A stretch of DNA of 64,000 nucleotides, taken from an uncultured Bacteroidales bacterium. Lineage in GTDB: Bacteria > Bacteroidota > Bacteroidia > Bacteroidales > JAGOPY01. Positions 40,178-64,000 of the stretch are shown here, in pieces. Below the pieces are notes generated by a model. It worked only from the letters and a program-made list of their open reading frames with translations. It made no database searches and had not been told where the DNA came from. Each line of letters begins with the position of its first letter. Position 1 is the first letter of the stretch. A program made the position numbers and the translations under genes. The stretch is from NCBI GenBank assembly GCA_963701785.1, contig CAVPBC010000003.1, positions 481,556-545,555 of the forward strand, read 5' to 3'.

Positions 40178-43100
40178 TCTTATTCATCCTCAAATGATTC
40201 AGATACGCAAGCAATGATACCAGTGCAATAATCGCTACCGTGTAATAAACGAAAGTCGGCACGGGAACAGGATCGCCGGCAGCATAGGAGTGCATGCCCG
40301 ACAGGTAATAATTCACGCCGAAATAAGTCATCAGCACAGAGCTGAAACCGATAAGTGCGGCGAAATTGAATCCAAAGACACCGTTCAGGCCTGGTATAAG
40401 TCTCATGTGTATGATAAAGGAATAGACGAGCACGGTGACCAGCGCCCAGGTCTCTTTGGGATCCCATCCCCAGTAGCGGCCCCAGGATTCGTTTGCCCAG
40501 ACGGCGCCGAGAAAGGTACCGATGGTAACAAGGAATACACCGATGATCAGGTTCATTTCGTTGATGTTTGTCAGCTCCTCAATGGTGGATTTCAGCTTAT
40601 TGAAATTATTTTTATTCTGCAGGCTGATCAGGACCAGGTTCAGGAACCCCAGCAGGGCCCCGACCCCCAGGAAACTGTAACTTGCCGTTATAATGGCCAC
40701 ATGGATCACCAGCCAGTAGGATTTGAGTACCGGCACCAGGTTGGTCATTTGCGGGTCGAGCCAGCTCAGGTTGGCTACCATCAGCGTTACTGAAGCCAGG
40801 ATGGCCGTGGTGGCCAGGGTGATTTTGGATGTCCTGGAGAAAAGGATACCGGAAAGTACCGTACCCCAGGCGATATAGATCATCGTTTCATACCCGTTAC
40901 TCCAGGGGGCGTGTCCGGCAACATACCACCTGATGGCCAATCCGATGGTATGCAGAACAAACAATGCGATGATCATTCCTATCAGGACACGGATGACCCA
41001 TTTCAGGTTAATCTTGCTGCTGAGTACCTGGATAAACAATATTATTATAAAGATCAGCCCTATTGTGCCGTACAACGGGAAGAGCCGCTTGAAAATATTG
41101 GAATTGTTATAGAAAATCTCAAGTTTTGATTTTAAGGTCGATGGCATAATATCCAGTACCGTACCTGTTCTGGAATGTTTTCAGGTAACCAAGCGTGGAA
41201 TCAGCCTGTGACCAATCGTTTGAACTCATGGCATCGACAACGGTGCTGTAATAAAGCGGGAGGATATTTCCTACAAATTTCGCGTCGGCACGTGTCAAAC
41301 GTGGAAAACGGATCCTCGGCGGTGTGCCATTTGTTTCCGGGATGTCCGGGTACAGGGAAAGCAGTCAGGAAATCTCCTGATACGGCCATAAAGAAGATAT
41401 TCACCCGTTCATCAACCTTGATAACGTCCTTGTCAAAACTGTTTCTTTCGACAGGTTTCTTATTATATGCCGTATTAATATGCTCGGAAAGTTTATAGAA
41501 ACCCATCTCCGGGTCCAGGAAATCATTAAACGAGGCATACTTACCATCAACCCCCAGCATTTTTTTAAGTTCCTTATCGGTCACCTTGATCATCGGCACA
41601 CTTTGCCAGTACATCGGGTTAGTCAGCATCCCCAGGAAGACCTGGTCGCTGTTTAATCCTGACATATTATCTTTCCTGTATATCTTGCGCATGATTTCGG
41701 AGGAAAGGGTATTTACCGGTTTCATCCGGCCATCCTGGTCCTGGACGATCAGTTGCCCGAATTTTTTTGCATGTTCTTTGCTGATATTTAAAGGATCAAA
41801 CGAAGTATTATGCTGGGAAAAGGAATCAATAGCTGAAAAACTTAAAGCGAATAGTAATAGCGAATGAAGCGAGTGCACTTTTCTTCTTCAGTTCTGAAGA
41901 CATTTTCGAAAGTTTGCGGAACCGGCTGTTCTTGCTGAAGAAATTGAAAACCAGTCCTGCCGCCATGATGAAATATCCGATATAAGTGATCAGCGTACCC
42001 CAGCTATCGTGGTTGACAGAAAGAATGGTACCTTTTTCATCTTTATCATAAGAAGACTGGAAAAACCTGAATCCGCCGTAATTCAGGATATTGTTCATAA
42101 AGATACGGTAAGGCTTTTCTATGTTTTTAACCGGATCCAGCACAGTTACTTCGCTGGCAAAGGAAGACGGGCTCATCGACCCGGGATATCTTTCCAGTTG
42201 AAAATCCCTGAGCATAACGGAGAAGGGTAATTCAATAATTTTTGAGCCATATGAAACTGCAAAATCTGCATCGCCAAGGGTGGTTCTGACCGGCTGTCCG
42301 ACCATGCCTTTCCCTCCCAGCACGCCGATTTCTTCGCTCTGTCCCTTATAGCTGAGCTTCATAACAATGGCGGCGACACCACTGGTTTCATGCGGTGAAG
42401 AGACCATCTGGGTTTTTCCGGATGCGTAGAATTGGCGGACAACAAGCTGAACCCCGTTAAAATCATATAACTGCATGGTATTCAGGGTATAGGTCGAATC
42501 CTTGCTGAGCGAGTCGGTTGTTCCGGCCATCATGTTCATGACCGTGGCATCGACCGGGGCGCGAAAAGTCAGCCCGGTTTCAGGGCTGTAATTGATCCGG
42601 ATGGCGTCAGGATTGGTTGTTTCTGCATTGAAACTCAGGCTTAAACCAGCTGTTTTCTTGCTCTCACCGGCTTTGATCAGTGCATTTTTTCTTTCGCCTT
42701 TGTCCACCGTGACATAGGTCATCATCGGGATGCCATTTGGAGCTTCCACAACAGCCTCGGCTGCATTGGGAATATATTTCACGTATTCAAGACGGATGTC
42801 TTCACCATCCATGGAATAAGTTTCGTTAAACCTGTTCTTCTTGAACTCGGTAAATAAGTATTCATCAGCGAAATAAGCCTTTTGCCCGTTCTTTTCAACG
42901 TTGACCTGGACATAGGGCCTTTCCGAGATGATCCTGTTTGATGATTCCCCTTCACGGATCATCATAGTCCCTTCATAGCCGGCATATCGGGTAATGGCTG
43001 CCCCTGCAAGGATGACAATGAATGACATGTGGAAAAAAAGGACACTGTAACGCTTACGTTCATATAGCTTGTATTTGAACACGCTCCCGACAAGGCTGAT

Positions 43101-43274
43101 GGCCCCAAGCAGCAAAAGGCCTTCAAACCATAGGGCATCGTAAACTACTGATTTGGCTGCCAGCGTTCCGAAATCATTTTCGATAAAAGTTGCCGTTCCG
43201 ATTGCGGCGGCAAAAATCAGCATCAGCGTTCCTGCAAATTGCATGGAGAATATAAAGTCGAATATTTTTCGCAT
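40161..43274 (-). pseudogene. ccsBA: cytochrome c biogenesis CcsBA (ResB-CcsA fusion), reading frame interrupted
   Basis: Fragments are 41826..43274 (ResB-like), 41201..41878 and 40161..41147 (CcsA with 'WGRYWGWDPKETWAL'). By my translation the frame changes at ~41875, ~41285 and ~41150, and the intermediate frame reads 'ADAKFVGNILPLYYSTVVDAMSSNDWSQADSTLGYLKTFQNRYGTG'. The total of ~1035 codons equals a Bacteroidetes CcsBA. It overlaps ccoI by 17 nt. Confidence 0.8.
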
Positions 43275-43391
43275 TGTTGAGAGTTTTAGAGTTTCAAATT
43301 CCAGCTCCTAACCCGATTAAGGGGAGTGGGGCTAACGTCAGCAAAAATAGTTAAAACAGGTATATTATAAAGAATGAATTTAAATAAATAT

Positions 43392-43560
43392 AAAAGAGGC
43401 TGTCTTAAAAGTCGCTATTTCTGTTTTATCGCAGATTATCGCTGATTCTACGCAGATTTCGCGAATTTATATCATTGATTATAAATAATCTGCGAGAATT
43501 TGCCTTTCATCTGCGTTAATCTGCGTGAAACATAAAAGCACTTTTGAGACAGCTTCTTTT
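43392..43560. repeat. MITE/REP-like element with 21-nt terminal inverted repeats
   Basis: 'aaaagaggctgtcttaaaagt' (43392-43412) pairs with 'acttttgagacagcttctttt' (43540-43560). The interior holds reiterated 'atctgcg' motifs. Confidence 0.6.
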
Positions 43561-43584
43561 ATCTAAACCCAATTTTTATTAATA

Positions 43585-44780
43585 TCAATGATGTTGCAGG
43601 CTCTCTTCCAGGTAAGGATGATTTTTCGCCACCAAGGGTGCAGCTTTGAGCGCACGGGCCACTACAAAGGCAAACATGCCGGCAAATCCCAGAAATGAAC
43701 CTATTTCAATGAAGCCGATCTGAAGCTTTCCATAAGTACCGACAATGATCTGCAGGTAAAGGTCTACCCAATGACCGAAAATAATAACAATACAGATAGC
43801 CATCAATGTGTTCTTATGACTCACCAGGTAATTCGAAAGCAGCAATACGAAAGGTATTACCCAGTTGATGATCAGTTCCATATAAAACAAGGGCATGAAC
43901 TCACCTTTTGTCCTTGGAAGGTAATAAACGGTCTCTTCGGGAATGTTGGCATACCAGATCAGGATATACTGCGCAAACCACAGGTAGGTCCATATGATGC
44001 TGAGGATAAAGATGTATTTCGAAAAGTCCTTCAGATGGGCTTTATTGAGGAATGGGAGATATCCCAATTTTCCTGAGTATTATAACGATCAGCGTGATGA
44101 CTACAGTTCCATGGTAAAAGGACATGACGAAATTTCTGACAGCAAAGATGGTACTGAACCAGTGAACATCTACCGACATGATCCAGTCGAAAGTTGCCAG
44201 GGAAAAAGTAATGGCAAGAGTGAAAATGTAAATCTTGGAAAAGAGCTCACTCCTGTAAAAATTCGTCATTCCGCCAATTCTGTCTTCTTTGAGGGACAAT
44301 CTTTTCAGGTACTGCGTCAGGAAGATCCAGACGGCAAAAAACAGGATATACCTGAAAATGAAGAAAGGGAGGTTGAGATAAGGGCTCTTATGCGCGATGA
44401 TCGGGTCATGGTCTGCTGCGCCATGATGGGCCCAGTGATAAATATCCGGCAAACCGAAAATCAAGGATCGGGATCATAAGCACGGCAATAACCGGGATCA
44501 CATTTGACATGGCCTGGGGTATCCTGATAAAAGCGCTTGACCAGCCTGCCTGTGTAATATATTGAAGGGCGGCAAAGAAGGTCGCTCCAATAGCCAGGGA
44601 AAGGAAATAATAGTTGTTCATCAGGTAATTGGCCCATGTTTTCGTGGGATTGATAAAGAAGCCAACGATGATGGTCACCAACCCGATCCCCATCAGTATG
44701 AAGGTCAGGTAGTTAAACTTCTTTGAGATCACGAGCTGTTTATCCATATTATAATTTTCCATAGTTGATTCTCCTTCCAT
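43585..44780 (-). pseudogene. actF: alternative complex III subunit ActF (NrfD-like), frame interrupted twice
   Basis: Fragments 44406..44783, 44042..44464 and 43585..44067 join into one polytopic protein. Frame changes are near ~44440 and ~44055. Confidence 0.75.
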
Positions 44781-44788
44781 CAAAATAA

Positions 44789-45365
44789 CTATTTACCCAG
44801 TTCCCTGACATAATGTATGATCTTCCAGCGGTTTTCAGGGCTGATCTGTGAGCCATGGGGCCCCATCAGCCCGGAAAGTGATCCGAGCGTGATAACATGA
44901 TATATCTCGCCGTCAGGCTTATTTTTCACAAGATCGCCTATCAATGAAGTGGGCTGGGCTGGAAATCGCTTGCTGGTAAACAGGAACCCTTTGCCATCAC
45001 CCCTGTCGCCATGACAGCTGACGCAGAAAATGCTGTATTGCTCCTTGCCTTTAGCGAGTGTTTCCGCAGTAACAGGAATGGGATTAATCAGTTCTAGCCC
45101 CGGCCCTTACCTGATCCTCAAAAGATTTAGCCTTAAACATATAAGCCGGTTGATGCCCTCTTGCAATCGTCCCCTTTACCGGTGCCTGCATGGTCAGGCT
45201 GTCACGGAACAATGGATTTGCCGTATAAGCATCATACGCTTCCGAATAATACATGTCAGGCATGTAGGCATACCCGGGATGATTGCGGTCATGGTTGCAA
45301 GATATCATGAGAAACATGACTGCCGCCAAAGGTATGATCGGGTATTTTAAACAGTTTTTTATCAT
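44789..45365 (-). pseudogene. actE: alternative complex III monoheme cytochrome c subunit ActE, frame interrupted
   Basis: The N-terminal fragment 45084..45365 has lipobox 'LMISC'. My translation of the C-terminal part gives 'CVSCHGDRGDGKG...ENRWKIIHYVRELGK*' in another frame, with the shift near ~45085. Confidence 0.75.
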
Positions 45366-45378
45366 AATGATCCAACTA

Positions 45379-45928
45379 TTAATCGTTTTCTTCTTCAATA
45401 TAATGCTCCGGCTGGACTTTTTCCGAAATTTCGACGGCTCCCGTCTCTTTCAGGATGGAAGTGATCCTTTTAACTTCTTCATCGGTAAATTCAGCCGTCT
45501 TTTCGATTACGATGGCGAATTTGTCATCTGTCGTGCGGGGATCGATCATGACCACATTTTTTCCCGGCCCGATCTTCTGCCTGATAAAGAAGGTCGTAAA
45601 TGTGAACAGTACCGCAACGAAAATGGTCCCGACAAACATAATGATGATAAAGGAAAGGGAATTCAGCGGTTTTCCACCGAATTTCAGCGGGTAATTGACA
45701 ACCGAGGTCCAGTAAAGGAAAGCGTAAATTGACAATCAGCCCGACTGTCCCGTAAATAAAAGTGAGTATGGGAAGACGGGTTTTCAATCCAAGCACATCC
45801 CATAACTCATGGATAGGGAAGGGGCTGAATATGTTCTTAATCGGGACATCCTTTTCCTTAAGCTTTTTAGCTGCGGCAACAAGGACGTCAGGATCATCAT
45901 AAATCCCTATGATATTAATGCTTTCCAT
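45379..45928 (-). pseudogene. actD: alternative complex III subunit ActD (DUF3341-like), frame interrupted
   Basis: Fragments 45524..45928 and 45379..45735 join at ~45727 ('..FIYGTVGLIV|SIYAFLYWTSVVNYPLKFGGKP..'). Confidence 0.75.
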
Positions 45929-45933
45929 CTTTT

Positions 45934-47298
45934 TTATCTTTCTTGATAGCTTGTTTCTTTTAAAATACCTTTCAATTCACTGATAGCCATCATCGGGATA
46001 AACCTGAAGAAAATCAGCAGGCCGAGGAAGAAAATACCGAGCGTGCCCAGGAAAAAGGCCTTATCATAAATAGTCGGGTGATAGGCTGCCCAGCTTGCAG
46101 GCAAAAAGTCTTTAGAAAGCGAAGTGACTACGATAACATAGCGCTCAAACCACATCCCTATATTTATAATGATGGACATGATAAAGACGATGGTAAGGTT
46201 CTTCCTTATCTTCTTGAACCAGAATAGCTGGGGAATGATTGCATTACAGGTTATCATGGCCCAGAATGCAAACGTGTAGTCACCTGTGATCCTGTTCTTC
46301 ATAAAAGTGAACATCTCGTATTCGGTACCTCCGTACCATGCAATGAACAACTCGGTCAGGTAAGCTGTGCCCATGATAAGGCTGATAAAGGTCAGGATCC
46401 TGGCAATGGCATCAAGATGGCCCTGCGTTACGAAATCTTCATATTTGAATACTTTCCTTACGATGATCATAAGTGTCATGACCATCCCGAAGCCTGAGAA
46501 AATAGCCCCGATGACGAAATATGGCGGGAAGATCGTCGTATGCCATCCGGGCATGACTGAAGTGGCAAAGTCCATGGAAACTATCGAATGCACCGAAACA
46601 ACCAGGGGTGCTGTTAAACCGCCAAGCAGCAGGGCAGCTGTTTCAAACCTCAGCCATCCGCGTGCGCTCCCGACCCATCCGAAGCTCAGGATGCCGTATA
46701 TCTTCTTTTTTAATTTTGATGTCGTCCTCTCCCTGATCGTAGCAAAATCAGGGATCATACCCATGTACCAGAATGTTCCGGAAGCCATCAGGTAGGTGCT
46801 GATCGCCACTACATCCCAGAACAAAGGGGAATTGAAATTGACCCATAAAGGCCCGCGGGTATTAGGATAAGGAAGGATGAAAAAGGCATCCCATACCCTG
46901 CCCATGTGCAGCATTGGAAATAGACCGGCGCAGAGGACTGCAAATACTGTCATGGCTTCAGCCGCGCGGTTGATGGAAGTTCTCCACCGCTGGCGAAGTA
47001 TTAGCAGAAAGATTGAAAATGCCGTGCCGGCATGACCGATCCCGATCCACCATACAAAATTGATGATATCCCATCCCCAGCCGACATTGTTATTAAGCCC
47101 CCATATCCCGATACCCGTCGTAACGAGCATATACATGCTCCACAGGCCTATCATGACCATTACTACGCTGATAAAGATTCCTATGTACCACCACCTGGGC
47201 GGGCTGTCGGCTTCAAACGGCCGTAAGATCTCACGGGTGATCTGCCTATAAGTCTTATTTCCATTTATTAGTTCGCCTCTGACTTCTGCTTTATACAT
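45934..47298 (-). CDS. actC: alternative complex III quinol-interacting membrane subunit ActC (NrfD/PsrC family)
   Basis: Intact 454-aa, ~10-TM ORF in the conserved position after actB. Confidence 0.85.
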   Translation of the reverse strand: MYKAEVRGELINGNKTYRQITREILRPFEADSPPRWWYIGIFISVVMVMIGLWSMYMLVTTGIGIWGLNNNVGWGWDIINFVWWIGIGHAGTAFSIFLLILRQRWRTSINRAAEAMTVFAVLCAGLFPMLHMGRVWDAFFILPYPNTRGPLWVNFNSPLFWDVVAISTYLMASGTFWYMGMIPDFATIRERTTSKLKKKIYGILSFGWVGSARGWLRFETAALLLGGLTAPLVVSVHSIVSMDFATSVMPGWHTTIFPPYFVIGAIFSGFGMVMTLMIIVRKVFKYEDFVTQGHLDAIARILTFISLIMGTAYLTELFIAWYGGTEYEMFTFMKNRITGDYTFAFWAMITCNAIIPQLFWFKKIRKNLTIVFIMSIIINIGMWFERYVIVVTSLSKDFLPASWAAYHPTIYDKAFFLGTLGIFFLGLLIFFRFIPMMAISELKGILKETSYQER

Positions 47299-47331
47299 AT
47301 TGAGAAATTTTAATATACCTGATCGTTACTA

Positions 47332-50300
47332 TTAATGGGTCTCTTCATGATGCTCATCCGGTATGGATTCCCCGGATGAATATGTCGGATAATTGATGGA
47401 ATAATTCCGCTTTTTGTCTTCCGGGTCCATATTCCTGACCTTGGTGACATAGCTTACCGAAGGCAGGGTATGGAGCTGCTCGAGCAACTGGTAACTCCTG
47501 GGGTTCTGGGTAATTTTTGCGATCTCGCTGTTCGGGTCATTGATATCGCCGAAATACGATAGCATCTCCCGGGCATGACTGCTGGCAGGCCGTCTTGATC
47601 TCGCCTTCCATGACACTGCGGTTTTCAATTTTAGCCTTCAGCTTTTGCTCCTGGATCCGCTGGACACACATCGAGCATTTCTCAACGACTCCCCTTGAAC
47701 GGACGGTCACATCAGGATTGAGTACCATTTTCTCCTGCTCGTTGCCCATATTGTAATTAAACCTTTTTTCATTGGTATATTCAAACCAGTTGAACCTTCT
47801 GACGCGATATGGGCAGTTATTCATGCAATACCGCGTGCCGATACAACGGTTGTAGGCCATCTGGTTCAAACCCTTCAGAACTGTGAGGAGTGGCAGCGAC
47901 CGGGCAGACATTTTCACAGGGTGCATTATCGCAATGCTGGCACATGACCGGCATGTGGGTAACTTCCGGGTTGTCGACTTCTTCCGAATAATACCTGTCG
48001 ATCCGGATCCAGTGCATGATCCTGCGGTTTTTCACTTCCTGTTTGCCAATCACGGCAATATTATTCTCGGCCTGGCAGGCAATGGCGCAATTGCCGCATC
48101 CTATGCAGGCATTGAGGTTGATGGCCATGCGTCCAGTGGTAGCTGTCGAAAACGGGAAGGTTGTAAAGTGATTTGTTCTGTTCCATGATCTCCATATGCA
48201 TTTCATTGCCTGCATTGGGATTTTCCTTCCATTGATCCAGGGTCGTTTCCCTGATAATGGCGCGGCCCTTCCATGGTATGATGGGTCTGCGTGGTCGCCA
48301 GCGGATAGGTTTTACCTTCGACTTTATCAAGGGTGACGGATTTTCCTGATAGTTGCCTGTAACCGTTTTTCAGGTTTGCAAAAGGATAAAGGTTCTTACC
48401 AATTCCGTCCGCTACTTTGCCGGCGCTGGTCCGGCCGTAGCCGATGGCTATGCCTATGGTATCCTTGTGCTGGCCCGGCTGGACAAGCAACGGCAACTCA
48501 ATGGACCCGTTGATCATCACCACATCTTCATTCTTCAGGCCATGCTCTTCGGCATAGGACGGGGAAACACAAACGTAGTTGTCCCACACAGCCTTGGAGA
48601 TCGGATCAGGCAATTCCTGCAACCAGGGGTTGTTGGCATGTTTTCCGGTTCCCAGCCCGTTCTTTTCATAAAGGACCAGTTCCAGGCCGTTCACGGTTTC
48701 TGCTTTTGCAAGGCTGAGGTCAACCTCCCGAAAATCAACAGCTGACAATTCAGAACCGCCAATTTCTGCGAATCCGTCCTGCAGGCTATTGTTCCAGAAT
48801 TGCTCAAATGAAACGAATGCAGATTGCTTTGGTAAAAATATCTTCTTCCCAGCAGGTCCTGATGTAATCGTAAATAGCTGTTTCATTTCCTGACCATTTC
48901 AAAAGGCTTTCCTGTGCCTGCCTGGTATTAAAGATATGGTTAATGACAGGCTGGGCAAGGTGAAGAAATTCTTTTGCGGCTCAGCGTCATTCCAGGATTC
49001 AAGGTAATGGTTATCAGGACAGACATATTTACACAACTGTGCTGTTTCATCAAGGGTTTCTGAAAATGAGACCGTCAGCTCGCATTTTTTCATTCCATCG
49101 ATGAACTTATCCGGTTCGCCATAATCATAGGCGGGATTGACTCCATAAAGGATCAGGGCTTTTACACTTCCGGCGTTCATTTCATCGACCACCCTGGTTA
49201 ATTCACGGTCACTTCCCTGGCGGAGGTACATGGGCTTGTTTATGTCCAGGGTTACTCCGTAATTATCGAGTAATATATTGATGGCATTGACGGCAGCCTG
49301 TATGTAGAAATCGTTTGTACCGGAGATCACTAGTGACCGGCCTTTGTTTGCCTTAAGTTCTGTTGCAATTGGCCTGACATCGAAAGGGGGAGCTGCGGTA
49401 GTGACGGTTTGCATGCCTTTTTCTGCGGCTAATTCATTGAAAAGATTGAGCAGGATAAGCAGTTCTTCCGATGGTTTCATCTGCACACGCGTATCGGCAT
49501 TGGAACCTGTCAGCGACATGTACGACTCAAACTGGATGTGCCGCGACATGTTATTTTCGTTGGTGAGTTTCCGGCCCTTTGTGTAATCCCTTGCATATTG
49601 AACCGGAAGGATCCAGTTTCCGAGGAAGTCAGCATTAAAGCCCACGATGAGTGAAGCTTTGTCGAAATGGTAGGAGGGAATGGCCCTGGTGCCGAAGTTG
49701 GCTTCATTGGCGTCGAGCATGGCGGCCGCAGAAATAGTGTCATAAATAACCCATTCCGTTGCCGGGTAAGCTAATTTGAATTCTTCAACTGCTTTGCGGG
49801 TTGATGGGCTAATAACGGTTGGGCTGAGAAGGACTATTTTCCCGTTACCGGCACTGATGGCCTTCAGCTTATCCTTTACTTCCTGGTCGACGACCTGCCA
49901 GCCGGTTTCCTGTTTATCTTTCAGGGGCTCTTTCAGCCTGGCCTGGTCATACAAGCTCAGGACAGAGGCCTGTACCCTCGCGTTCGTCCCACCCTGGGTC
50001 AGTTTTGACAATGTGTTTCCTTCGATCTTAATCGGCCTGCCTTCTCTCGATTTGACCACAATGCTGCAATAGTCGTAACCATCAAAAAAAGTTGAAGCAT
50101 AATAATTGGCGATCCCTGGTGTGATCTCTTCGGGCTGGCTGAGGTAAGGAATAGCCTTCCTGACGGGCATTTCGCAGCTATTGGCAAGTGCGGCATATCC
50201 GACCGTAAAACCGAGCATTTTCAGGAAATCACGGCGGCTCGGATTGATAGATCTATCATCCGCTGCCATGCCTTCCGCCAAAATCTCCTTTTCAGGCTGA

Positions 50301-50380
50301 AGCTTTTCTTTGCCATGCTCTTGCGGTGTCATGCCGTTATACTCATCCAGGCTTCTCCAGTATTGTTTTATATCGTCCAT
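47332..50380 (-). pseudogene. actB: alternative complex III subunit ActB (molybdopterin-oxidoreductase-like plus 4Fe-4S domains), frame interrupted ~6 times
   Basis: Tat signal 'SRRDFLKMLGF'. FeS motifs 'CIGCGNCAIACQAENN', '[14 protein letters not shown]', '[13 protein letters not shown]' and 'CSMCVQRI'. Fragments are 48899..50380, 48203..48886, 48061..48330, 47817..48215, 47537..47926 and 47332..47628. Shifts lie near 48955, 48840, 48270, 48130, 47890 and 47600. The total of ~1016 codons equals a normal ActB. Confidence 0.8.
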
Positions 50381-50404: not shown

Positions 50405-51587
50405 TTAATAATGGCATTTTGCACATTCGGTGCCACCAACATCTTCAACAGTGATGCGTGTGCGGGTGCCTGATTTGAGCTTCCTCATGCAGTTTTGCGA
50501 ATTTCTGGTAGTATCCGTTTTCGGTAAATTGAACTTCTGTAGTACGGTGACAGTCGATACACCATCCCATGCTCAGTTGCTGGACCTGCATGATCCGGTC
50601 CATGGATTTTACATCGCCATGGCATGATTCACATGCTACTTTTCCTGCAACGACATGCTGTGCATGGTTGAAATAGCTATGATCCGGGAGATTATGCACC
50701 TTGACCCACTCGATCGGCTTGCCTGTTTCCAGTGCCTTGTAAATCTTATCAATTTCTGTCGTGCCCGTGTTACGTCCCTGTTTAACAACGTTGTGGCAGT
50801 TCATGCAAACATTAACTGAGGGAATGCCTGCGTGTTTGCTTTCCGTCACGGAAGTATGGCAGTATTTGCAATCGATCTTGTTATCGCCGGCATGGACTTT
50901 ATGCGAGAACAGGACAGGCTGATCCGGGGCGTAGCCAGGCTGGCGGCCCATGTTCTGGGCTTCCACCACGGTGATTTCCGTAATGATGAAAATTGAAATC
51001 AGGATGACGATCACATGCACAAAGCGTGCTTTGATAAGTTTGGTTACAAAGAGATCAAATATTGCGGCAAACATCAGGATCATGGTGATTATAAACGTGG
51101 TCCCGTACTGGCGCTTATGATCTTTTGTGTCCTTGAAGAAAGCTTCCTGGGCAGCTTTTTCCTCATCGCTTATCACCTCAGACGGAGCTTGCGCCGCGGC
51201 AGCCTGTTCAGGATCGTAATTATCGATATAGTCAATTACGGCGATGATTTGCTCATCTGTTAATCCGGCGGGAGGCATAGGTATCTTATTATACTCCTCG
51301 AACAACTTAACGGCATATTCATCACCGGATTGAATAACTTCCTGGGAATTTCTGATGAACTTTATCAGCCACTCACGGTCGCGGCGCTGGGTTACCTGGT
51401 AAAGATCAGGCCCGACCAGTCTGCCCTTTCCAAGTTGATGACAAACCGCGCAGGCCTTAAAAAGCTGGGCTCCATCCGGAGCCTGGGAGAAAATTCTTTC
51501 CGCAAAGATGCCATCTGTAAACAGGATGGCCATGAGCAATAAGGCAGGAAGGATTTTGCGCATGGTCCGGCGTAAATATCTATGCAT
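50405..51587 (-). pseudogene. actA: alternative complex III multiheme cytochrome c ActA with an extra N-terminal cytochrome c domain; C-terminal frameshift
   Basis: Heme sites are CAVCH (N-terminal domain), CKYCH, CMNCH, CESCH and CIDCH in track ORF 50445..51587. After a shift near ~50478 my translation gives '..ITVEDVGGTECAKCHY*' (a sixth CxxCH) ending at 50405. Confidence 0.75.
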
Positions 51588-51769: not shown

Positions 51770-52578
51770 CTACCAGCTTCCTCCTGCACCGCCGCCTCCA
51801 AAGGATCCACCTCCGAATCCCCCGAATCCGCCGCCGCCGCCGCCGCCAAAGCTGCCTCCGCCGGAGCGGAAATCGCCCCAGGAACCGCCACCACCTCGGT
51901 TGCCCATCATCGAAGCCAGCCATAATGCAGTCCAGATTGAGGTGCCTTTACTGCCTGTAGTGTAATGGTTGCCGGAATTACGTCGCATGAACAGGATTAT
52001 GATAATGATGATGATGAGTGGGATTAAAACGCCGGCTGAGGTTCCCCCTGATTTCTTTTTATACTGGTCGGAAGTGAATTCCCCCTTTGCCAGCGAGATC
52101 AAAGTATTCGTTGCCTTGTCGATGCCGGTAAAGTAGTCTCCTGTTTTGAAATAAGGGATCATTTCATTCTCCACGATACGTTTGGCAATCGCATCCGGGA
52201 TAACTCCTTCCAGTCCGTAAGCGACTGAAATCCGGGCCTGGCCTTTATCATTGCCATATTTAGGTTTTACCAGGACGACAATGCCATTGTTTTTCCCTTT
52301 CTGGCCTACGCCCCATTTTTCCCCGACCCGGTCGGCAAATTCTTCTTTTGTCAAACCATTCAACGATCTTAACGATAATTACGACAATTTGCGAAGATGA
52401 ACTGTCATCGAATTTAACGAGTTTTTGTTCCAGTCTGCCGGAACTGGTTTTCAGAAAAAAGCCCTGCGTAATCATTTACCAGCCTGGGAGGAGACATGGG
52501 ATCGGGAATATCCTGCCCTATTCCTGTTAGACTGAACAGGAGAAGACCGGCAAATATGAGGTTTTTAATTAATTTCAT
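51770..52578 (-). pseudogene. TPM-domain protein (YgcG-like) with a Gly-rich C-terminal tail, frame interrupted twice
   Basis: Fragments 52414..52578 (signal plus 'LVNDYAGLFSE'), 52260..52475 and 51770..52363 ('GIVVLV...ARISVGYGLEG'-type, TM helix, poly-Gly tail). Confidence 0.7.
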
Positions 52579-52591
52579 AAGTAGGACTCCT

Positions 52592-53035
52592 TTACTCGCC
52601 AAAGCTGATTTCGTCGGATAATTCATTTACATCACCTGTCTGATAGGGAAAGTGTTTTTTTAAGTTAGTGCCAACCAGGTCAACCCCTTCAATGAGACCT
52701 TCCGTAAACCTTTCTTCCCGGAAATGATTTAGAAGTAAATTTTTCAGGCCATCCCAGAAATCTTCCGGGACAACAGCATTTATGCCTTTATCGCCTACAA
52801 CGGCAAATCTCCTGTTTTTTACTGCCACGTAAAAAAGCACGCCATTCCGTTTTTCAGTTTTATGCATGCCCATTTTATCGAAAATAAAAGCCGCCCGGTC
52901 AAGCACATCACCCTGGCAGCTGGTCTCGATATGGACCCTGATCTCACCGGAAGTATCCAGTTCGGCATTAAGAACTGCCTGCCGGATATCTTCCTTTTGT
53001 TCTTTAGTAAAAAAATCTTTCGCTGTTTTGAACAT
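52592..53035 (-). CDS. TPM-domain protein (phosphatase-like)
   Basis: Intact 147-aa ORF. 'SGEIRVHIE....NGVLFYVAVKNRRFAVVGDKGI' is the TPM pattern. It follows lemA. Confidence 0.75.
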   Translation of the reverse strand: MFKTAKDFFTKEQKEDIRQAVLNAELDTSGEIRVHIETSCQGDVLDRAAFIFDKMGMHKTEKRNGVLFYVAVKNRRFAVVGDKGINAVVPEDFWDGLKNLLLNHFREERFTEGLIEGVDLVGTNLKKHFPYQTGDVNELSDEISFGE

Positions 53036-53746: not shown

Positions 53747-55652
53747 TTATATCAACTCTATGCTGCGTTTGACAAATGCGGTCAGCTTTTCACCTTTAAG
53801 CAGGTTTTGTGAGATCAGTGCCAGGTCAAATAACTGCCGGACAAGCTTGTCCTGGTTTTCTTCTTCCGGCTGGTCAAGGATAGTCTGCATCAGGGGATGG
53901 TTGGCATTAACAACCAGGTTGTAAAATTCTGGCATGTTGCCAAGGCCCATATAGCCTCCTCCGCCCAGGGCCGACATATCTTTCATGCGGCGCATAAATT
54001 CCGGCTGAAGCACCAGGAACGGGACCTCCGACTCGCTCAGGTTTTCAAAAACAACTGTGAACTTTTCCTTTTCAATGTTCTTTTCAATGATGCCTTTAAG
54101 TTTTTCTTTTTGGGCATCATCCAGCTTTGAGATACTGTTTTCGTCTTTATTGACAAGTTTATCGACGGTATCGGAATCCACCCTGCGGAACATGATATCG
54201 GTCAATTTATGTTCCAGGGTATTAATGAAATGATTATCCAGGATGCCGTCCATTATGATAACATCGTACCCCCTTTCCGTTGCTGCCTGGATGAAGCTAT
54301 GCTGTTCCTCTTTATTATTGGCATACAGGTAGATCAGCTTGTTATCTTTATCTTTCTGTGATGGCTCAACATGACTTTTATATTCATCCAGGGTGAAGTA
54401 CTTTCCGTCGACATTTTTCAGGAGGGCAAAAGTTGCAGCTTTATCATAGAACTTTTCTTCACTGATCATGCCATATTCAATAAACACCTTGATATCGTCC
54501 CATTTCGATTCGAAGCCCGGCCTGTCTTTTTTGAAGAGGTCTTCCAGTTTCTCAGAAACTTTCTTCATAATGTAGCCGGATATCTTTTTTACATTTGAAT
54601 CGCTCTGCAGGTATGAACGTGAAACATTTAACGGGATATCGGGCGAATCGATGACACCATGCAATAAGGTCAGGAATTCAGGCACGATTCCTTCCACCGA
54701 ATCAGTTACAAATACCTGGTTGCAGTATAGCTGGATCTTATCTTTCTGAATTTCGACATTCCTTTTTACTTTGGGGAAATAAAGTATTCCCGTCAGGTTG
54801 AAAGGGTAATCCACATTCAGGTGGATCTGGAACAGCGGTTCATCAAAATTCATCGGGTAGAGCTCGCGGTAAAAATTCTTATAATCTTCATCGGAGCAAT
54901 CGGCCGGTTTCTTTTTCCATAACGGATCTGGATTATTGATGATGCGTGGTTTTTCGACCATCACCTCTTTGTCGTTCCCTTTCTCGTCTTTTTCGCCTTC
55001 AACTTTTTCCCATGTTTTTTCCTTTCCGAATTCGATCGGAACAGGCAGGAAGCGTGAATATTTCCTTAAGAAGCTCAAGGATTTTGCTTTCTTCGAGAAA
55101 ATCTTTATTCTCCTTATCGATATAAACAACTACCTCGGTACCTCTTTCTTTGCGGTCAATTTCAGTAATCGTATAATCAGGACTGCCGTCACATTCCCAT
55201 TTTACAGCTTTTGTCTGGCCCCCTTTTTTATATGTTTTGGTATAGATTTCCACTTTATCCGCCACCATAAATGAAGAATAAAAACCAAGCCCGAAATGGC
55301 CGATGATCGCATTTCTATCCGCTTCACTTTTTGTCTTGAATTTCTTGACAAATTCCTCTGCACTGGAAAAAGCGATTTCGTTGATATATTTGTCCACTTC
55401 TTCGGCTGTCATACCGATGCCGCGGTCTTTTATCGTGATTGTTCCGGCTTTTTTATCCAGTTCCACACGTATGGTCAGGTCGCCGAGTTCATCTTTAAAA
55501 GTCCCGACAGAGGCCAGGGTCTTCAGTTTTTGCGTGGCATCGACCGCGTTTGATATTAACTCGCGGAGAAAAATTTCATGATCTGAATAAAGGAATTTTT
55601 TAATGATGGGAAAAATGTTTTCCGTCTGAACGTTTATCTTACCGGTTTGCAT
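53747..55652 (-). pseudogene. htpG: molecular chaperone HtpG (Hsp90), one frame interruption
   Basis: N-terminal fragment 54999..55652 ('RELISNAVDA', 'DRGIGMT', 'IGHFGLGFYS') and C-terminal fragment 53747..55129. They join at ~55065 ('..ELLK|KYSRFLPVPIEF..'), apparently an extra base in 'cttaaggaaata'. Confidence 0.85.
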
Positions 55653-56945: not shown

Positions 56946-56985
56946 AGATTGAAGATTGAAGATTGAAGATTGAAGATTGAAGATT
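56944..56985. repeat. tandem heptamer array 6 x (GAAGATT)
   Basis: Read directly. It overlaps the ilvE stop codon and fills the spacer up to the start of the next ORF. Confidence 0.9.
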
Positions 56986-59381
56986 GGAAAATCTTTTATT
57001 CTTGATAACTAAACCTTTTATCGTTTTTGTTTTTCTTTTTATCGGGGTCCAGGCTTACCCTCAGGAACGATTTACCCAGGTCATCAAAGGTAAGGTGGTT
57101 GAAAAAAGTACACTTATCCCTTTACCAGGAGCTTCAGTGGTTTTATTAAACTCAGACCCGGTCATAGGAACTGCGACAAACGAAAAAGGGGAATTCCGGA
57201 TAGAAGGAGTGCCGGTAGGGAGGCAAAGCATTCGCATCAGCTATATCGGTTATTTAGAAACTACCTTCTCCAATTTAAACATCACTACCGGGAAAGAACT
57301 CATTATCACGGTATTACTCGAAGAGACTATTGAGGTGATCGATGAAGTGATCATCCGGCCGGAAACAGGCAAAGATCAGCCCATCAACACCATGGCAGTC
57401 ATCAGTGCAAGGTCTTTCACGATTGAAGAAACAGAAAGGTACGCCGGCAGCGTGGGCGACCCATCCCGGATGGCATCAAATTTCGCCGGTGTTTCAACGC
57501 TTAGCGACATGCAGAACGAGATCGTCATCAGGGGCAATTCGCCCATGGGCCTTCTTTGGCGACTCGACGGTGTTGACATCCCGAATCCGAACCATTTCGC
57601 TTCACTTGGGGCAACAGGTGGCGGTCTCAGCATGATCAACAATAATACCCTTTCCAACTCCGATTTTTTCACCGGCGCTTTCCCGGCAGAATATGGCAAT
57701 GCGCTGAGCGGAGCATTCGACCTTAAAATGCGGAACGGGAATGACGATAAATATGAGTTCACTCTGCAGGCTGGTTTCAATGGTTTGGAAGCAGGTGCAG
57801 AGGGACCTGTCATAAAGAAAAATGGATCATCTTTCCTGTTCAATTATCGCTATTCTATGCTTTTGCTTGTCGACAAAATCATCGGCACAGAAGCACTTTC
57901 AGTGTCTGCAGTGCCTTTCTATCATGACTTTTCGATTAAGCTAAATTTTCCGGGCAGGAAGCATGGAAAATTTTCTATCACCGGGATAGGTGGCATCAGC
58001 GGGATCAATGAAATTGAATCGGATAAAGATTCGTCTGAATGGAAGCAGTTCCTGGCAGGGTTCTGATTATCATTTTGGTTCCCGCATGGGGACGCTCCTG
58101 GCAACACATACATATTTTTTCAACCCGAAAGTAAGACTTGAAAGCTATATCAGTATTTCGGGGGTTAACAGTATTATAGAGCAGGATACATTTACTGTAG
58201 TAAATATGGAACCTGCAGCACAAAGAAGGCAGGACTCGTGGCAGTCCACGCTGCAATTTGGCAGCAGTTTCCATAAAAAGCTGAACCTGAAAAACCATTA
58301 TGACATGGGGATAAACATCCAGTTCATCTTTTATAAGTTTCTGGATAAATCGGCAGGTGATGGTGATGAATTAATTCCTCTTATCGAGGTTAAAGGGAAT
58401 TCGATATTTCTGAAAGGATATTTTCAATGGCAGCATAAATTTTCCGACCAGTTGGTCATGAATGCAGGAATCGACGGGCTTTTTTTTGGCTATAACGGTA
58501 AACTTGCAGCTGATCCCAGGCTAAACTTTAAATGGCAGATAAATGGCAAGCAATCCCTGGGCATGGGGACCGGGATTTTCAGCCAGCTTCCCGAAGAGAT
58601 GTTTTATTTTATTGAGACAGAACTGCCCGACGGATCTGTTGCCCTGACCAACCGGGACCTTGGATACATGAGGAGCTTTCACCTTGTGCTGGGATATGAT
58701 TACCTGATTGCCAGGAACCTGCGCCTGAAGACGGAAGCATATTACCAGCATCTGTTTAATATACCTGTGAAGGAGAATGTTCCGGCATATTCCATGTTGA
58801 ATTTCGGTGAAGATTCATTTACTTCCTTACCAATCATCGATAGCTTGATAAGCAGCGGTACCGGAAATAATTTCGGGATCGAATTTACCCTGGAACGATT
58901 CCTGGATAAAGGTTACTATATCCTGTTTACTTCATCTTTATTCAAATCTGTTTATAAAGGATTCGACAAGATTGAACGCAATACTGCCTTCAGCAACAAC
59001 TTTGTTTTTAATCTCCTGACTGGAAAGGAATTCTGTATAAGAAAAAAGAACTTTCTGAACATCGACCTGAGGACCACCTGGGCCGGAGGGATGAGGTATG
59101 TTCCGTTTTATACTATCGAGGCAGATGAACATTATTACATTAAAGTTAATGAATGGGATAAAGCTTACCGGGAGCGGCGGCCCGATTATTTCCGACTGAA
59201 TGTGAGGATTGGATACAAAATGAATTTCAAAAAGGCCACGGCCGAGGTGGCAGTCGACCTGCTCAACCTAACTAATCAGAAAAATATCTACTTTGAATTT
59301 TATGACCCCTCCACCGGGGAGATCAAGACCGTTTACCAGCTGCCTTTCTTACCGGTGCCGCTGATCAGGGTGCAGTTTTAG
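56984..59381 (+). pseudogene. TonB-dependent-receptor-like outer-membrane protein (CarboxypepD_reg domain, plug, beta-barrel), one frame interruption
   Basis: Fragments 56984..58066 ('IKGKVVEKSTLIPLPGASVVLL...GEFRIEGVPVG', plug-like 'VISARSFTIEE') and 57990..59381 (beta-barrel ending '..LIRVQF'). The shift is near ~58030. Confidence 0.7.
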
Positions 59382-59394
59382 CAAGTCGTTTCAA

Positions 59395-59469
59395 ATGAAT
59401 CCTGAAAGGATTCAATTCGAATAGCCGGAATATGGTTATTCATTTGACGCCAACCACAACGTGGTTGAA
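59395..59469. repeat. 75-nt repeat, copy 1 (three hairpins)
   Basis: 'atgaatcctgaaaggattcaattcgaatagccggaatatggttattcatttgacgccaaccacaacgtggttgaa'. The stems are tgaatcc/ggattca and caaccac/gtggttg. Confidence 0.9.
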
Positions 59470-59471
59470 TA

Positions 59472-59927
59472 TCATGGAAGGTATTTTTCATTGTAATCAA
59501 TCTTATGTTCATCAAGCAATTGCTTGAATTCTTCCCTGAAATTTTTAACGCTGTGATGTTCTTCCTGGTTTTTAACGTATTCAATTAAATTATTCTTTGC
59601 ACTAATTGAATATGTGAAGGCTCCATAACCATCCTGCCATCCATTAAATCCGGGAAACATGGATTCTTTTTTTATAAAATCCGTTGTTGCCAGTTTAATA
59701 TCCTTTACCAGAGTGGCCAGCGAAACTGTCGGATGGATATGTGTTATTATATGCAGATGATCCGACTCTGCATTTATTCGATATAAATGGCATTCCTTAC
59801 TTTTTAAAATGCCATAGATATACATAAACAATTTTTCGCGATCTTTTTTACAAAGGCATTTTTTACGATTCCTTGTGGCGAATACGATTTGATACAAGAT
59901 TTGTGTGTAGGTGCTCATAAATTTCAT
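59472..59927 (-). CDS. tnpA: IS200/IS605-family Y1 (HUH) transposase, REP-associated (RAYT-like)
   Basis: 151 aa. 'STYTQILYQIVFATRNR', HUH motif 'DHLHIITHI', and catalytic Tyr region 'LIEYVKNQEEHH'. Confidence 0.9.
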   Translation of the reverse strand: MKFMSTYTQILYQIVFATRNRKKCLCKKDREKLFMYIYGILKSKECHLYRINAESDHLHIITHIHPTVSLATLVKDIKLATTDFIKKESMFPGFNGWQDGYGAFTYSISAKNNLIEYVKNQEEHHSVKNFREEFKQLLDEHKIDYNEKYLP

Positions 59928-59961
59928 TTTTATTAAACCCTTTCAGGGTTTTTGTTTGTAA

Positions 59962-60360
59962 ATCCGTTCATTACCTATTCAAATTGAAGCTCTTCGGGCT
60001 TGGGGGAAATATCCCGAATATTATCTATTCAAATTGAAGCCCTTCGGGCTTGGGGGAAATATCCCGAATATTATCTATTCAAATTGAAGCCCTTCGGGCT
60101 TGGGGGAAATAATCCGTTCATTACCTATTCAAATTGAAGCCCTTCGGGCTTGGGGAAGATATTCCGTTCATTACCTATTCAAATTGAAGCCCTTCGGGCT
60201 TGGGGGAAATAATCCGTTCATTACCTATTCAAATTGAAGCCCTTCGGGCTTGGGGGAAATATCCCTAATATTATCTATTCAAATTGAAGCCCTTCGGGCT
60301 TGGGGGAAATAATCCGTTTATTATTTATTCAAATTGAAGCCCTTCGGGCTTGGGCAGGAT
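59962..60360. repeat. 8 tandem copies of a 50-nt REP-like unit
   Basis: The unit has a conserved 36 nt 'ctattcaaattgaagcccttcgggcttgggggaaat' (hairpin aagccc-ttcg-gggctt) plus 14 nt in two alternating variants (atcccgaatattat / aatccgttcattac). Confidence 0.9.
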
Positions 60361-60405
60361 GAAATCCATCAAGGTTTTTAAATATCAATGATGCTATATT
60401 TAATT

Positions 60406-60480
60406 ATGAATCCTGAAAGGATTCAATTCGAATAGCCGGAATATGGTTATTCATTTGACGCCAACCACAACGTGGTTGAA
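60406..60480. repeat. 75-nt repeat, copy 2
   Basis: Identical to 59395-59469. Confidence 0.9.
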
Positions 60481-60623
60481 TTTTATGTCCTTTTGATATT
60501 AATCCGGGAAATGCCGTAAAAATACCCGGTCGATCATAAATATTTTTAGAAAAAGATTGTATCACGCATATGGCAAGGAATTGAGAGTTATTATTATATT
60601 TACGATTGGATTAATCATATTAA

Positions 60624-61845
60624 ATGAAAATTGCCATCATCGGCGGTGGGGCGGCAGGTTTTTTTGCAGCCATTTCGGCTAAAGAAAACTGTCCGGATGC
60701 CAGGGTTGTTATTTTTGAAAAATCTCACAAACTTCTTTCCAAGGTGGTGGTATCGGGAGGCGGCAGGTGCAATGTCACCAATGGTTGCGACTCGATAGAT
60801 GAACTCTGTAAAGCTTATCCCAGGGGAGGGAGAAGCCTGAAAAAAGCTTTTTATATCTTCAATAACAAACATACTATGAAATGGTTTGAGTCCCGTGGAG
60901 TTCCTCTGGTCATCCAGGATGATAACCGTGTTTTTCCCGCATCCCAGAGTTCGCATAGCATTGTCGATTGCTTTCTCCGGGAGGCGGAAAGACTGGGAAT
61001 TCAAATTAAAACGGAATCAGGTGTTCAGTCGATTACACCACTCGAGAATAGCATAAGAGTGGCCTTTTCAAAAAATGAACCATTGCCGGAGGATTTTGAT
61101 AAAGTAATTGTTGCCACCGGGGGTTCTCCGAAAAGAAGCGGACTGGAATGGCTTGAGGCTTTAAACCATAAAATCGAAGACCCAGTTCCTTCATTATTTT
61201 CTTTCAATATGCCTGATGAAAAAATATCCTCGCTGATGGGTGTTTCAGTTGATCATGCTATCGTGAGGATCCAGGGGTCAAAGCTTTCTTCATCAGGGCC
61301 TTTGCTGATCACACACTGGGGGATGAGCGGACCAGTGATTTTAAAACTATCATCTTTTGGGGCAAGGATATTAAATGAGATGGGCTATGACTTTAGGATC
61401 CAGGTCAATTGGGTGAATGAGCTGAATAACGGGCTGGTTTCTGAACAATTGAGAGATATTTCTGAAGGACATTCCCATAAATTACTGTCTAACTTCAGGC
61501 CTTATGCATTACCCGCAAGGTTATGGCTATATTTATTAGAGAAGATCGAATTACAGCCAGAAAAACCATGGGGCGAACTCGGTAAGAAAGGCATGAACAA
61601 GCTGGTAAATGTTTTGACCAATGATGAATACAAGGTGAACGGCAGGACGACATTCAAGGAAGAATTTGTCACCTGCGGGGGTGTAAGCCTGGATAGCGTC
61701 GATATGAGATACCATGCAGAGCAAAGTATGCAAAAACCTTTATTTTGCCGGTGAAGTATTAGATATTGACGCCATCACAGGCGGATTTAATTTCCAGGCC
61801 GCCTGGACGACAGGTTTTATTGCAGGGAAGGCATGTGTTATGTAG
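60624..61845 (+). pseudogene. HI0933/BaiN-family NAD(FAD) flavoprotein, one frame interruption near the 3' end
   Basis: 'KIAIIGGGAAGFFAAI' and 'SGGGRCNVTN'. Track ORF 60624..61754 leaves frame near ~61707. My translation of the next frame gives '[45 protein letters not shown]', the conserved C-terminus. Confidence 0.8.
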
Positions 61846-62182: not shown

Positions 62183-62219
62183 AATCTGAAAAAATTAAAT
62201 CCCGAAACTAGACTTCTGA

Positions 62220-63628
62220 TCATTTCGTATATCGGGCTGTAGAAACCCACAATAACAATACCGGCACACAGATGATCAACCCGGTCCTGGTCGCCCAGTC
62301 GCTCTTGAAATAGGCGATGGCTTCATCGCTCTTGGTCAGGAACATGGCTTTAATAACCAACAGATAATAGTAAAGTGAAACGATGGTGTTCAGTAAAGCG
62401 ATCAGCACCAGGTAATAAAATCCTTGCTCTGCGGCTGCAGTGAACAGGAAAAACTTCCCGAAGAAGCCGGCTACCGGCGGGATACCTGCCAGTGAAAAAA
62501 GCGCCAGCATCATGACCAGGCTGAGTTTTGGATTGGTGCGGTAAAGTCCGTTATAATCGTCCATATTCTCTTTTCCGGTGGCGTTGGCAATGGCCGCAAT
62601 AACCCCGAAAGCTCCCAGGTTGGAGAAGATGTAAATGAGGGAGAAATAGATCACTGAGCTCATACCCAGCGGACTGCTCCCGATGATACCAAGGAAAATA
62701 AAACCAGCCTGGGAGATGGAGGAGAAGGCGAGGAACCGTTTCAGATTCTTTTGTCTCAGCGCAAACAGGTTACCGATAGTCATCGTCATAACCGAAGTTA
62801 TCCAGAGCACATCCTGCCACATGCCGGTAACAGCCGGAAATACCTTGTATAAGGATCATCATCAGGATAAATACGGCAGCTCCTTTGGAAATGACAGACA
62901 GATAAGAGGTGATGCTGACCGGTGCGCCTTCATAAACATCGGCAGCCCAGAGGTGGAAAGGCACGATGGAGATTTTAAATGCCATGCCGCTGAAGAAGAA
63001 GATAAAGGCCAGGATCTGCAGTGGATTTGCCGAGAATGACCGTTGAAATGTTCGTGAAATAAATTGATCCGGTGGTTCCGTAGATCATAGAAATCCCGTA
63101 AAGCAAGATAGCAGACGACAGGGCGGAGGAAAGGATCAGTTTCACCCCGGCTTCAGCCGAACGGTTCTTGTGGCGTTCATAGGCTGCCAGAGCGGCCAGC
63201 GGAATGGTGGCCAGTTCCAGTCCAATGTAAAACATCAGGAAATCACCGGAGGAGATCATGAAGTTCATCCCGATCAGGGTTGAGATGATCAGAAGGAAAT
63301 ACTCGCTCACTTTCGGGTGGTTTTCAGGATGCCTGATCCAGGTCCATGACTGCATAAAGACGATCAGCACACCGATATTCAGAACATTTTTCATCAGGGT
63401 GATGGTGCCGTTGGTATGGAACATACCGCCGAACAGTATCCCTTCCCGCAGGGGCAGGAAGCCGATGATCGTATGAACCAGGAAAAGCCCTATGGCCAGG
63501 GGTACTACCCTCTGCTTGACTTTGTCATCCATTGCCAGTTCAGCAATCAGGATGATCATTGTGATGATTGTCAGCACAATTTCGTGCCGCATCAATAAAA
63601 GGTTTTCAAATGTCATAACAAGTATCAT
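62220..63628 (-). pseudogene. nuoN: NADH-quinone oxidoreductase subunit N, frame interrupted twice
   Basis: Fragments are 62975..63628 (start 'MILVMTFENLLLMRHEIVL'), 62770..62985 ('[21 protein letters not shown]', the conserved NuoN motif) and 62220..62822. Shifts are near ~62980 and ~62800. Confidence 0.8.
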
Positions 63629-64000
63629 TGTTCTATTGTTCCAATAGTTCCAAAGTTCCAGCCCCAGGTGGGCGTCTAACGGTATCACCATCACCGTCAG
63701 TCTATCCACGATCGGCCCCAGGCTATTCATGATCATATCCGACAGCCAGAGCGGGAACATACCGATGGCGGTAATACCAACGATCAGCAATCCGACTGAA
63801 AACTTTTCATACCATCTGGCATCGCCGAGCTGCAAGATGATGGTCATCTCTTATCGGGCCGAGCAGCAGGATGGCGATAACACGCAGGATATATACGGCG
63901 GTGATCACGATGGAAGAGGCCGCAACGATGGTGGCTACCCGGTGAAAAATGTCAGCGTGCTGGAATGCGCCGAAGAAAACGGTCATTTCAGCCACGAATC
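63629..64000 (-). pseudogene. nuoM: NADH-quinone oxidoreductase subunit M, 3' part (5' end outside window), frame interrupted and no in-frame stop before nuoN
   Basis: Fragments 63807..63995 ('AEMTVFFGAFQ...') and the upstream part of track ORF 62975..63847 ('DARWYEKFSVGLLIVGITAIGMFPLWL'). The shift is near ~63830. The frame then runs through the spacer repeat into nuoN. Confidence 0.6.

Follow-up and report, generated by a model that had tools for sequence, protein, structure and literature searches.

Split genes in the right-hand 23 kb of a Bacteroidales metagenome contig most likely reflect single-base consensus errors and not gene decay

Introduction

The window studied here, a 64,000-nt stretch of contig CAVPBC010000003.1 from an uncultured Bacteroidales bacterium, raises the question of whether the many frameshifted genes right of about 41.1 kb are lesions of the organism or flaws of its sequence. 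Pseudogenes of reductive evolution, for example in recently host-restricted bacteria, show a mixture of nonsense mutations, multi-base deletions, IS insertions and repeat slippage; their substitution load is raised and the decay is common to close relatives. Indels that fragment genes are also well documented in under-polished long-read assemblies (proovframe preprint, 10.1101/2021.08.23.457338; Kastor, PMC12007338; Sereika et al., PMC9262707; ARAMIS, PMC8574707), where the effect depends on coverage and polishing. In well-covered long-read assemblies the residual errors mostly concern homopolymer length (PMC8812927), with a share of more than 70% (PMC8574707). An earlier note on this DNA had favoured a change in consensus quality as the cause of the breaks.

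Materials and methods

The breaks from ccsBA to the receptor gene were placed by blastx against the ORFs of 80 related loci and by frameshift-aware protein-to-DNA alignment. For the BaiN-like gene, nuoN, nuoM and the nuoM/nuoN junction we relied on ORF frames, splits of Pfam models and aligned contigs. A tally of stop codons within the blastx HSPs was swamped by spurious antisense ORFs of the reference set and the frameshift-aware alignment was used instead.

The nucleotide comparison was based on contigs from four unrelated metagenomes of different studies (X1-X4, 94-99+% identical) and on the JGI contig L161 (98.6%). Among the indexed public runs the highest share of the window's sampled words was 0.47 (X1). 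Exact-protein look-ups for near-identical contigs returned no match in five of six cases; the look-up with the aminotransferase gene yielded the usable contigs L161 and L162. A scan of metagenome contigs with CcsA gave a best match of 70% at the amino-acid level, which is too distant for placing indels at the nucleotide level.

Results

Extent of the frame breaks

Protein-guided alignment revealed ∼24 coding frame breaks at 41.15-64.0 kb, whereas the 22.8 kb of coding sequence checked at 16.4-41.15 kb contained none (Table 1). The breaks affect ccsBA, actA-F, a TPM-domain gene, htpG, a TonB-type receptor, a BaiN-like gene, nuoN and nuoM. The abrupt loss of ORF integrity right of ∼41.1 kb described in the earlier note is therefore evident here too, and its tally of ∼22-24 breaks agrees with the total of ∼24 from protein alignment, ORF frames, Pfam splits and contigs. 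The genes it listed do carry breaks, though an event in the C-terminal tail of actC (45950) had been overlooked. Its gene labels match Pfam for those scanned (ccsBA, actA, actC, htpG, the BaiN-like gene and nuoN). Pfam gave no match for actB or the receptor and NCBIfam none for the TPM fragment; Rfam and tRNA scans across the window returned no matches either.

Table 1. Coordinates of the two segments and of the affected genes in the window (position 1 is its first nucleotide)
Feature	Position	Strand	Observation
Error-laden segment	41147..64000	.	∼30 one-base indels (∼1.3 per kb), ∼24 of them frame-breaking; extends to the window end
Clean comparison segment	16419..41147	.	22.8 kb of homology-checked coding sequence without frame break; aligned contigs gap-free inside coding sequence
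ccsBA (ResB-CcsA fusion; 1043 aa in relative L001)	40161..43274	-	Extra bases 41154, 41290, 41859
actF	43585..44834	-	Extra bases near 44071, 44465
actE	44798..45431	-	Extra base 45096
actD	45379..45940	-	Extra base 45731
actC (NrfD family)	45934..47298	-	Body undamaged; extra base 45950 changes only the final few residues
actB (∼1020 aa in relatives)	47332..50380	-	Extra bases 47554, 47873, 48129, 48269, 48829; missing base 48959
actA (multihaem cytochrome c)	50408..51587	-	Extra base 50480
TPM-domain/YgcG-like gene	51770..52659	-	Extra bases near 52370, 52437
htpG	53747..55652	-	Extra base 55070; elsewhere 84% identity to the L006 orthologue
TonB-dependent-type outer-membrane receptor	56984..59381	+	Extra G at 58045
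HI0933/BaiN-like flavoprotein	60624..61845	+	Extra base 61707
nuoN, three frame pieces	62220..63620	-	Extra bases 62853, ∼62980; Pfam PF00361 model split over the pieces
nuoM, 3' part, leaves the window	63621..64000	-	Frame change near 63810; indel(s) 63626/63646

At the right-hand rate, the left coding sequence that was checked (22.8 kb) would be free of events with a probability of ∼3e-12. The events are on average ∼0.78 kb apart and thus the onset can only be placed to roughly 38.9-41.15 kb. The CcsA part of ccsBA (40161-41147) is undamaged, and neither a repeat nor a join at 41.1 kb nor any other sequence cause is visible for a sharp onset inside this one gene.

The genes checked at 16.4-41.15 kb were free of frame breaks, in line with the earlier note. 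Each gene at 23.4-41.15 kb gave one in-frame HSP in blastx, the cbb3 oxidase and the P-type ATPase showed zero shifts in frameshift-aware alignment, and the NCBIfam models of cydA, cydB, an acyl-CoA synthetase and ccoG were covered end to end. As a control we aligned contigs of the same runs to 1-41 kb, where pieces confined to coding sequence showed no gaps. The indels encountered there were intergenic, restricted to a single run or study, or formed a compensating pair in one divergent strain. What looked like a shift and a stop between coxII and coxI proved to be the boundary of two separate genes aligned with a fused ORF in L017 and not a lesion. The clean part also holds a truly decayed duplicate at 12.3-13.2 kb, which carries multi-base indels.

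Type, context and spacing of the lesions

All coding lesions involve one base, namely 23 extra bases and one missing base. In the ten broken genes examined by frameshift-aware alignment there are zero stop codons inside the coding regions; the stops that it reports mark the end of a gene or precede its start. Frame corrections of one or two bases were sufficient in these genes and no longer frame-shifting indel was found, the tally covering frame-shifting indels. Protein identity to the orthologues is still high (84% for htpG, 79% for actC and 68% for actA). Removing base 61707 gives back a 406-aa BaiN-like protein, with an ending that we take to be the conserved C-terminus of the HI0933/BaiN-like family. 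With the frame change near 63810 and the indel(s) at 63626/63646, nuoM runs into nuoN without a stop.

For 18 extra bases the exact position could be assigned. Fourteen of them are unlike both neighbours and one lies in a run of four or more. Since 14/18 copy no neighbouring base they are not homopolymer slips: slippage-like mutation is rejected (p=2e-11), whereas a model of random base insertion, with 58% non-copying expected, is compatible with the data (p=0.10). These sites thus bear out the earlier remark that the contexts are non-homopolymer. The concentration in homopolymers that is typical of systematic long-read errors was not found at these sites, and the small number of homopolymer sites (1/18) points to random rather than systematic errors. 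A shared motif at the indels, for instance a methylation-site context, had been suggested as a check, but visual inspection of the 23 site contexts showed none.

The spacing of the events is exponential (KS p=0.74), i.e. Poisson-like at ∼1.3 per kb, and on inspection the positions showed no periodicity, such as that of 500-nt polishing windows. Both strands and genes of unrelated function are affected. Among the intergenic indels of the segment, some may be genuine differences between strains; at 59430, for example, the same letters are found again in the second copy of an 82-nt repeat.

That the pieces add up to proteins of normal length is the sole point in favour of a biological restoration of the frames through programmed frameshifting or transcriptional slippage. 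The chance of this seems negligible to us: the sites lack homopolymer or slippery contexts, ∼24 of them are spread over unrelated genes, and the same proteins are encoded in one frame in orthologues and in near-identical strains.

Comparison with close relatives

At site after site the X1-X4 contigs lack the extra base, often in all four runs. X1 contigs with at least 98% identity lack it at all three events they cover (41158, 41292 and 45950). The contig L161 lacks the G at 58045 and reads through the receptor frame there. The substitutions show no corresponding excess: relative to the X1 strain we counted 49 in 4960 positions on the right (0.99%) and 41 in 4238 on the left (0.97%; Fisher p=1.0).

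The earlier note had also offered a chimeric contig as a sub-option. Under this reading the junction between two different strains, or between separate assemblies, would be near 41.1 kb, with lower quality on its right side. The onset is indeed abrupt, and one 10-kb stretch on the right has a somewhat lower word share of X1 (0.30 compared to 0.47). However, in the next right-hand 10 kb the share is 0.43. Moreover, the relatives are collinear over the boundary, with one X3 contig covering the stretch from left of 41001 up to 43260, and ccsBA, a single gene, crosses it as well. Divergence is the same on both sides, ∼3-6% for the X2/X3 strain and ∼1% for the X1 strain. As there is neither a break in collinearity nor a step in divergence at the junction, the data disfavour two strains or unrelated assemblies having been joined, and we regard a chimera as very unlikely. 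Had two assemblies of the same strain been merged, these data would look the same as after a drop in coverage or polishing.

Under genuine pseudogenisation, ∼24 frameshifts would truly be present in the lineage, with the loss of alternative complex III (ACIII), complex I subunits, HtpG and genes nearby. The frameshifts are present in the deposited sequence and, as in reductive evolution, many neighbouring genes are frameshifted while their homology is still recognisable. The resemblance goes no further. The lesions are all of one base, without nonsense codons, larger deletions or IS disruptions. Natural one-base indels look different from these insertions, which are non-templated and not located in homopolymers. 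The events occur irrespective of gene function and strand, and they are missing from strains ∼99% identical. Substitutions are not in excess, although 30 neutral indels should bring far more of them. The adjacent 41 kb are clean, and the true decayed duplicate within them has multi-base indels instead. Neither a mixed lesion spectrum with relaxed constraint nor lesions common to close relatives were thus found, and we consider regional pseudogenisation highly improbable.

The insertions might nevertheless be real if a very recent regional shower of non-templated +1 insertions had struck one environmental Bacteroidales cell lineage, which was then sequenced before further decay. Such a shower could stem, for example, from a tract of error-prone repair or replication of at least 23 kb. 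We judge this scenario to be extremely unlikely.

Discussion

The events exist, are confined to one region, are missing from relatives and are unlike natural mutations. We conclude that, very probably, the consensus is poorer over the right 23 kb of the window than in the rest of a generally good metagenome-assembly contig, and that the breaks most likely are consensus errors without gene decay. This agrees with the leading explanation of the earlier note, as the breaks are private, one base long, nearly all insertions, Poisson-spaced and non-homopolymer, without an excess of substitutions. Several features expected of an artefact were observed: only very short lesions, missing from near-identical genomes, blind to function and strand, with substitutions not raised. 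We infer that the extra bases are absent from the source's own DNA. Stochastic single-base errors, nearly all of them spurious insertions, would have survived at ∼1.3 per kb, and because of these surviving errors gene callers would see split genes. The stretch likely rested on very few reads or missed polishing, and low coverage or missing polishing is the most likely cause.

The pattern resembles that of under-polished or low-coverage long-read (meta)genome assemblies, in which single-base indels split conserved genes into adjacent fragments that join to normal length and substitutions are not raised. It differs from published long-read residual errors in that it starts sharply and affects a single part of a contig, consists of ∼95% insertions and is mostly non-homopolymer. 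Insertions outside homopolymers also depart from the textbook residual errors of long reads; they would fit random single-pass errors at very low coverage.

Error density can shift abruptly within a single long contig and therefore quality scores for a whole MAG can mask locally poor stretches. Automated annotation of this segment would flag ∼14 genes as pseudogenes or release dozens of fragment proteins into databases. Taken at face value, the sequence describes a bacterium without alternative complex III, part of complex I and HtpG, yet with caa3, cbb3 and bd oxidases, which would be a false metabolic inference. The breaks are most likely no real biological feature and their value is a practical one. 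In the freshwater Bacteroidales-like organism itself, ccsBA, alternative complex III (actABCDEF), htpG, the receptor, the BaiN-like gene and nuoM/nuoN are most likely intact.

Frame breaks to the right of 41.1 kb

An earlier note on this DNA had described, from the nucleotides alone, an abrupt loss of ORF integrity to the right of ~41.1 kb. We compared the window by blastx with the ORFs of 80 related loci. Each gene between 23.4 and 41.15 kb gave one in-frame HSP (among them the cox genes, the cbb3 oxidase, the P-type ATPase and the CcsA half of ccsBA, the ResB-CcsA fusion gene), and beyond 41.15 kb nearly all long genes gave 2-5 HSPs in differing frames. The alignment of the genes to their orthologues, which the note had asked for, was run as a frameshift-aware protein-to-DNA alignment and placed one-base events from ccsBA to the receptor; it found no shifts in two control genes, the cbb3 oxidase and the ATPase. 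The last 4.6 kb have no orthologous loci and were judged from ORF frames, Pfam model splits and metagenome contigs. Without base 61707 the BaiN-like gene yields a 406-aa protein, whose ending we take to be the conserved C-terminus of its family. On the left cydA, cydB, the acyl-CoA synthetase gene and ccoG, likewise lacking orthologous loci, span their NCBIfam models end to end. The described loss and the intactness of the left genes were both borne out, and the gene labels were correct for the genes scanned against Pfam. The right side carries about 24 coding events over its 22.9 kb; at this rate the chance of zero events in the 22.8 kb of left coding sequence checked is about 3e-12.

Positions of frame breaks and other features of the window (A: frameshift-aware alignment; B: ORF frames, Pfam splits and contigs)
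Feature	Position	Basis	Left out by every covering run
ccsBA	41154, 41290, about 41859	A	41859
actF	44071, 44465	A	
actE	45096	A	45096
actD	45731	A	45731
actC tail	45950	A	45950
actB	47554, 47873, 48129, 48269, 48829; one-base loss 48959	A	48129, 48269, 48829, 48959
actA	50480	A	50480
TPM-domain gene	52370, 52437	A	
htpG	55070	A	55070
receptor	58045	A	58045
BaiN-like gene	61707	B	61707
nuoN	62853, about 62980	B	62853
nuoM	near 63810; nuoM/nuoN junction	B	
cassette array	2980-15312		
palindrome elements	near 2996, 7363-7529, 8186-8352, 10126-10431, 11198-11363, 12137-12302		
HigBA-like pair	10494-11115		
decayed duplicate	12300-13200		
tyrosine recombinase	14209-15312(-)		
8-nt-period arrays	15534-15701, 20311-20363, 24290-24365, 25712-25776, 32398-32463, 37420-37490		
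coxII and coxI	26419-28842		
7-nt-period array	56940-56988		
IS200/IS605-family transposase gene	59472-59927(-)		
50-nt x 7.8 tandem array	59963-60354		
82-nt direct repeats	59395-59476, 60406-60487		

The coding lesions were of one base each, with 23 insertions and 1 deletion in the window. The frameshift-aware alignment required frame corrections of one or two bases only and reported no stop codons within coding regions. For 18 extra bases the metagenome contigs gave an exact position. In 14 of these 18 cases the base was unlike either neighbour, consistent with random insertion of a random base (58% expected, p=0.10). A run of four or more bases was present at 1 of the 18 sites, in agreement with the earlier remark that the contexts are not homopolymers. 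The spacing between events was exponential (KS p=0.74). Slippage-type mutation was ruled out by the neighbour contexts of the extra bases (p=2e-11).

The same sites in related strains

Contigs of four metagenomes (X1-X4), which come from separate studies and whose strains show 94% to over 99% identity, were aligned to the window. Nearly all contig pieces on the right side showed one to four one-base gaps, and every covering run left out the events in the last column of the table, among others. X1 contigs at least 98% identical carried three indels (41158, 41292 and 45950), all of which match window events, the contig lacking the base at each. The JGI contig L161, with 98.6% identity to the window across 2.9 kb, lacks the G at 58045 and has the receptor in a single frame. 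As a control, pieces lying wholly within coding sequence in 1-41 kb showed no gaps in X1-X4; the indels found there lay between genes, were seen in a single run or study, or formed a compensating pair in one divergent strain.

The near-identical strain in X1 differed from the window at 49/4960 nt on the right and 41/4238 nt on the left, and thus the right side carries no added substitution load. The X2/X3 strain diverged by about 3-6%, left and right alike. An X3 contig is collinear with the window from a point left of 41001 up to 43260, and the boundary falls inside ccsBA, which together with the even divergence argues against a join of different strains. The note's leading explanation, a change in consensus quality, is supported except for one of its options, the chimera of two strains, which is disfavoured.

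Judged by its respiratory gene set and relatives, the window is placed in a Bacteroidales-like bacterium. The closest match of ActC (79% identical) is in an uncultured Bacteroidales MAG from a species-level genome collection. Most of the public runs that share sequence with the window are metagenomes of freshwater, sediment or wetland, and the best indexed run contains at most 0.47 of the window's sampled 31-mers.

Other features of the window

The left part holds an integron-like cassette array of small ORFs on the same strand, including a HigBA-like pair, with GC-rich imperfect-palindrome elements, each about 130 nt long, between them. The adjoining tyrosine recombinase passes NCBIfam NF040815 ('tyrosine recombinase/integron integrase') and is under the TIGR02249 cut-off. 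Related strains show other element joins (4754->10440, 7402->11335, 10366->11301), so the cassette content is strain-variable. A decayed duplicate of gene 11376-12110 has repeat blocks 96-100% identical at offsets of 939, 941, 968, 1051 and 1054 nt and no long ORF left; it is a genuine pseudogene-like remnant within the clean part of the window.

Intergenic arrays of 7- or 8-nt period with differing unit sequences are sited between respiratory genes and have very high word depth in every metagenome compared. Their copy number is variable (L161 lacks 14 nt at 56943-56956). The direct repeats, 98% identical, flank the transposase and array unit, and one X3 contig jumps 59379->59928, indicating that the insertion at 59395-60487 is polymorphic. 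coxII and coxI are separate genes, 4 nt apart and in-frame with each other; at the related locus L017 they form one 808-aa open frame.

Interpretation of the frame breaks

Natural mutation or decay of the right side is not plausible. It would have to account for about 30 non-templated one-base insertions within 23 kb without added substitutions, in events that are blind to gene function and strand, end at an abrupt limit and are absent from 99% identical strains. Neutral decay should produce far more substitutions than indels, as well as nonsense codons and larger deletions. Real decay inside the window looks different, the repeat offsets of the duplicate drifting by tens of bases. A real regional insertion shower in this lineage is highly improbable.

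The pattern matches random read errors that persist where only a handful of reads underlie a consensus or polishing is lacking, and the gene-fragmenting effect of such errors has been described for long-read assemblies (10.1101/2021.08.23.457338; PMC12007338; PMC9262707). In well-covered assemblies the leftover errors are mainly homopolymer errors (PMC8812927; PMC8574707), whereas those of the window lie mostly outside homopolymers, which suggests that the errors are stochastic and stem from low coverage, not from a systematic source. Another kind of non-biological sequence corruption would have the same appearance. On this evidence the frame breaks are very probably an artefact, and the organism is best regarded as having intact copies of the broken genes.
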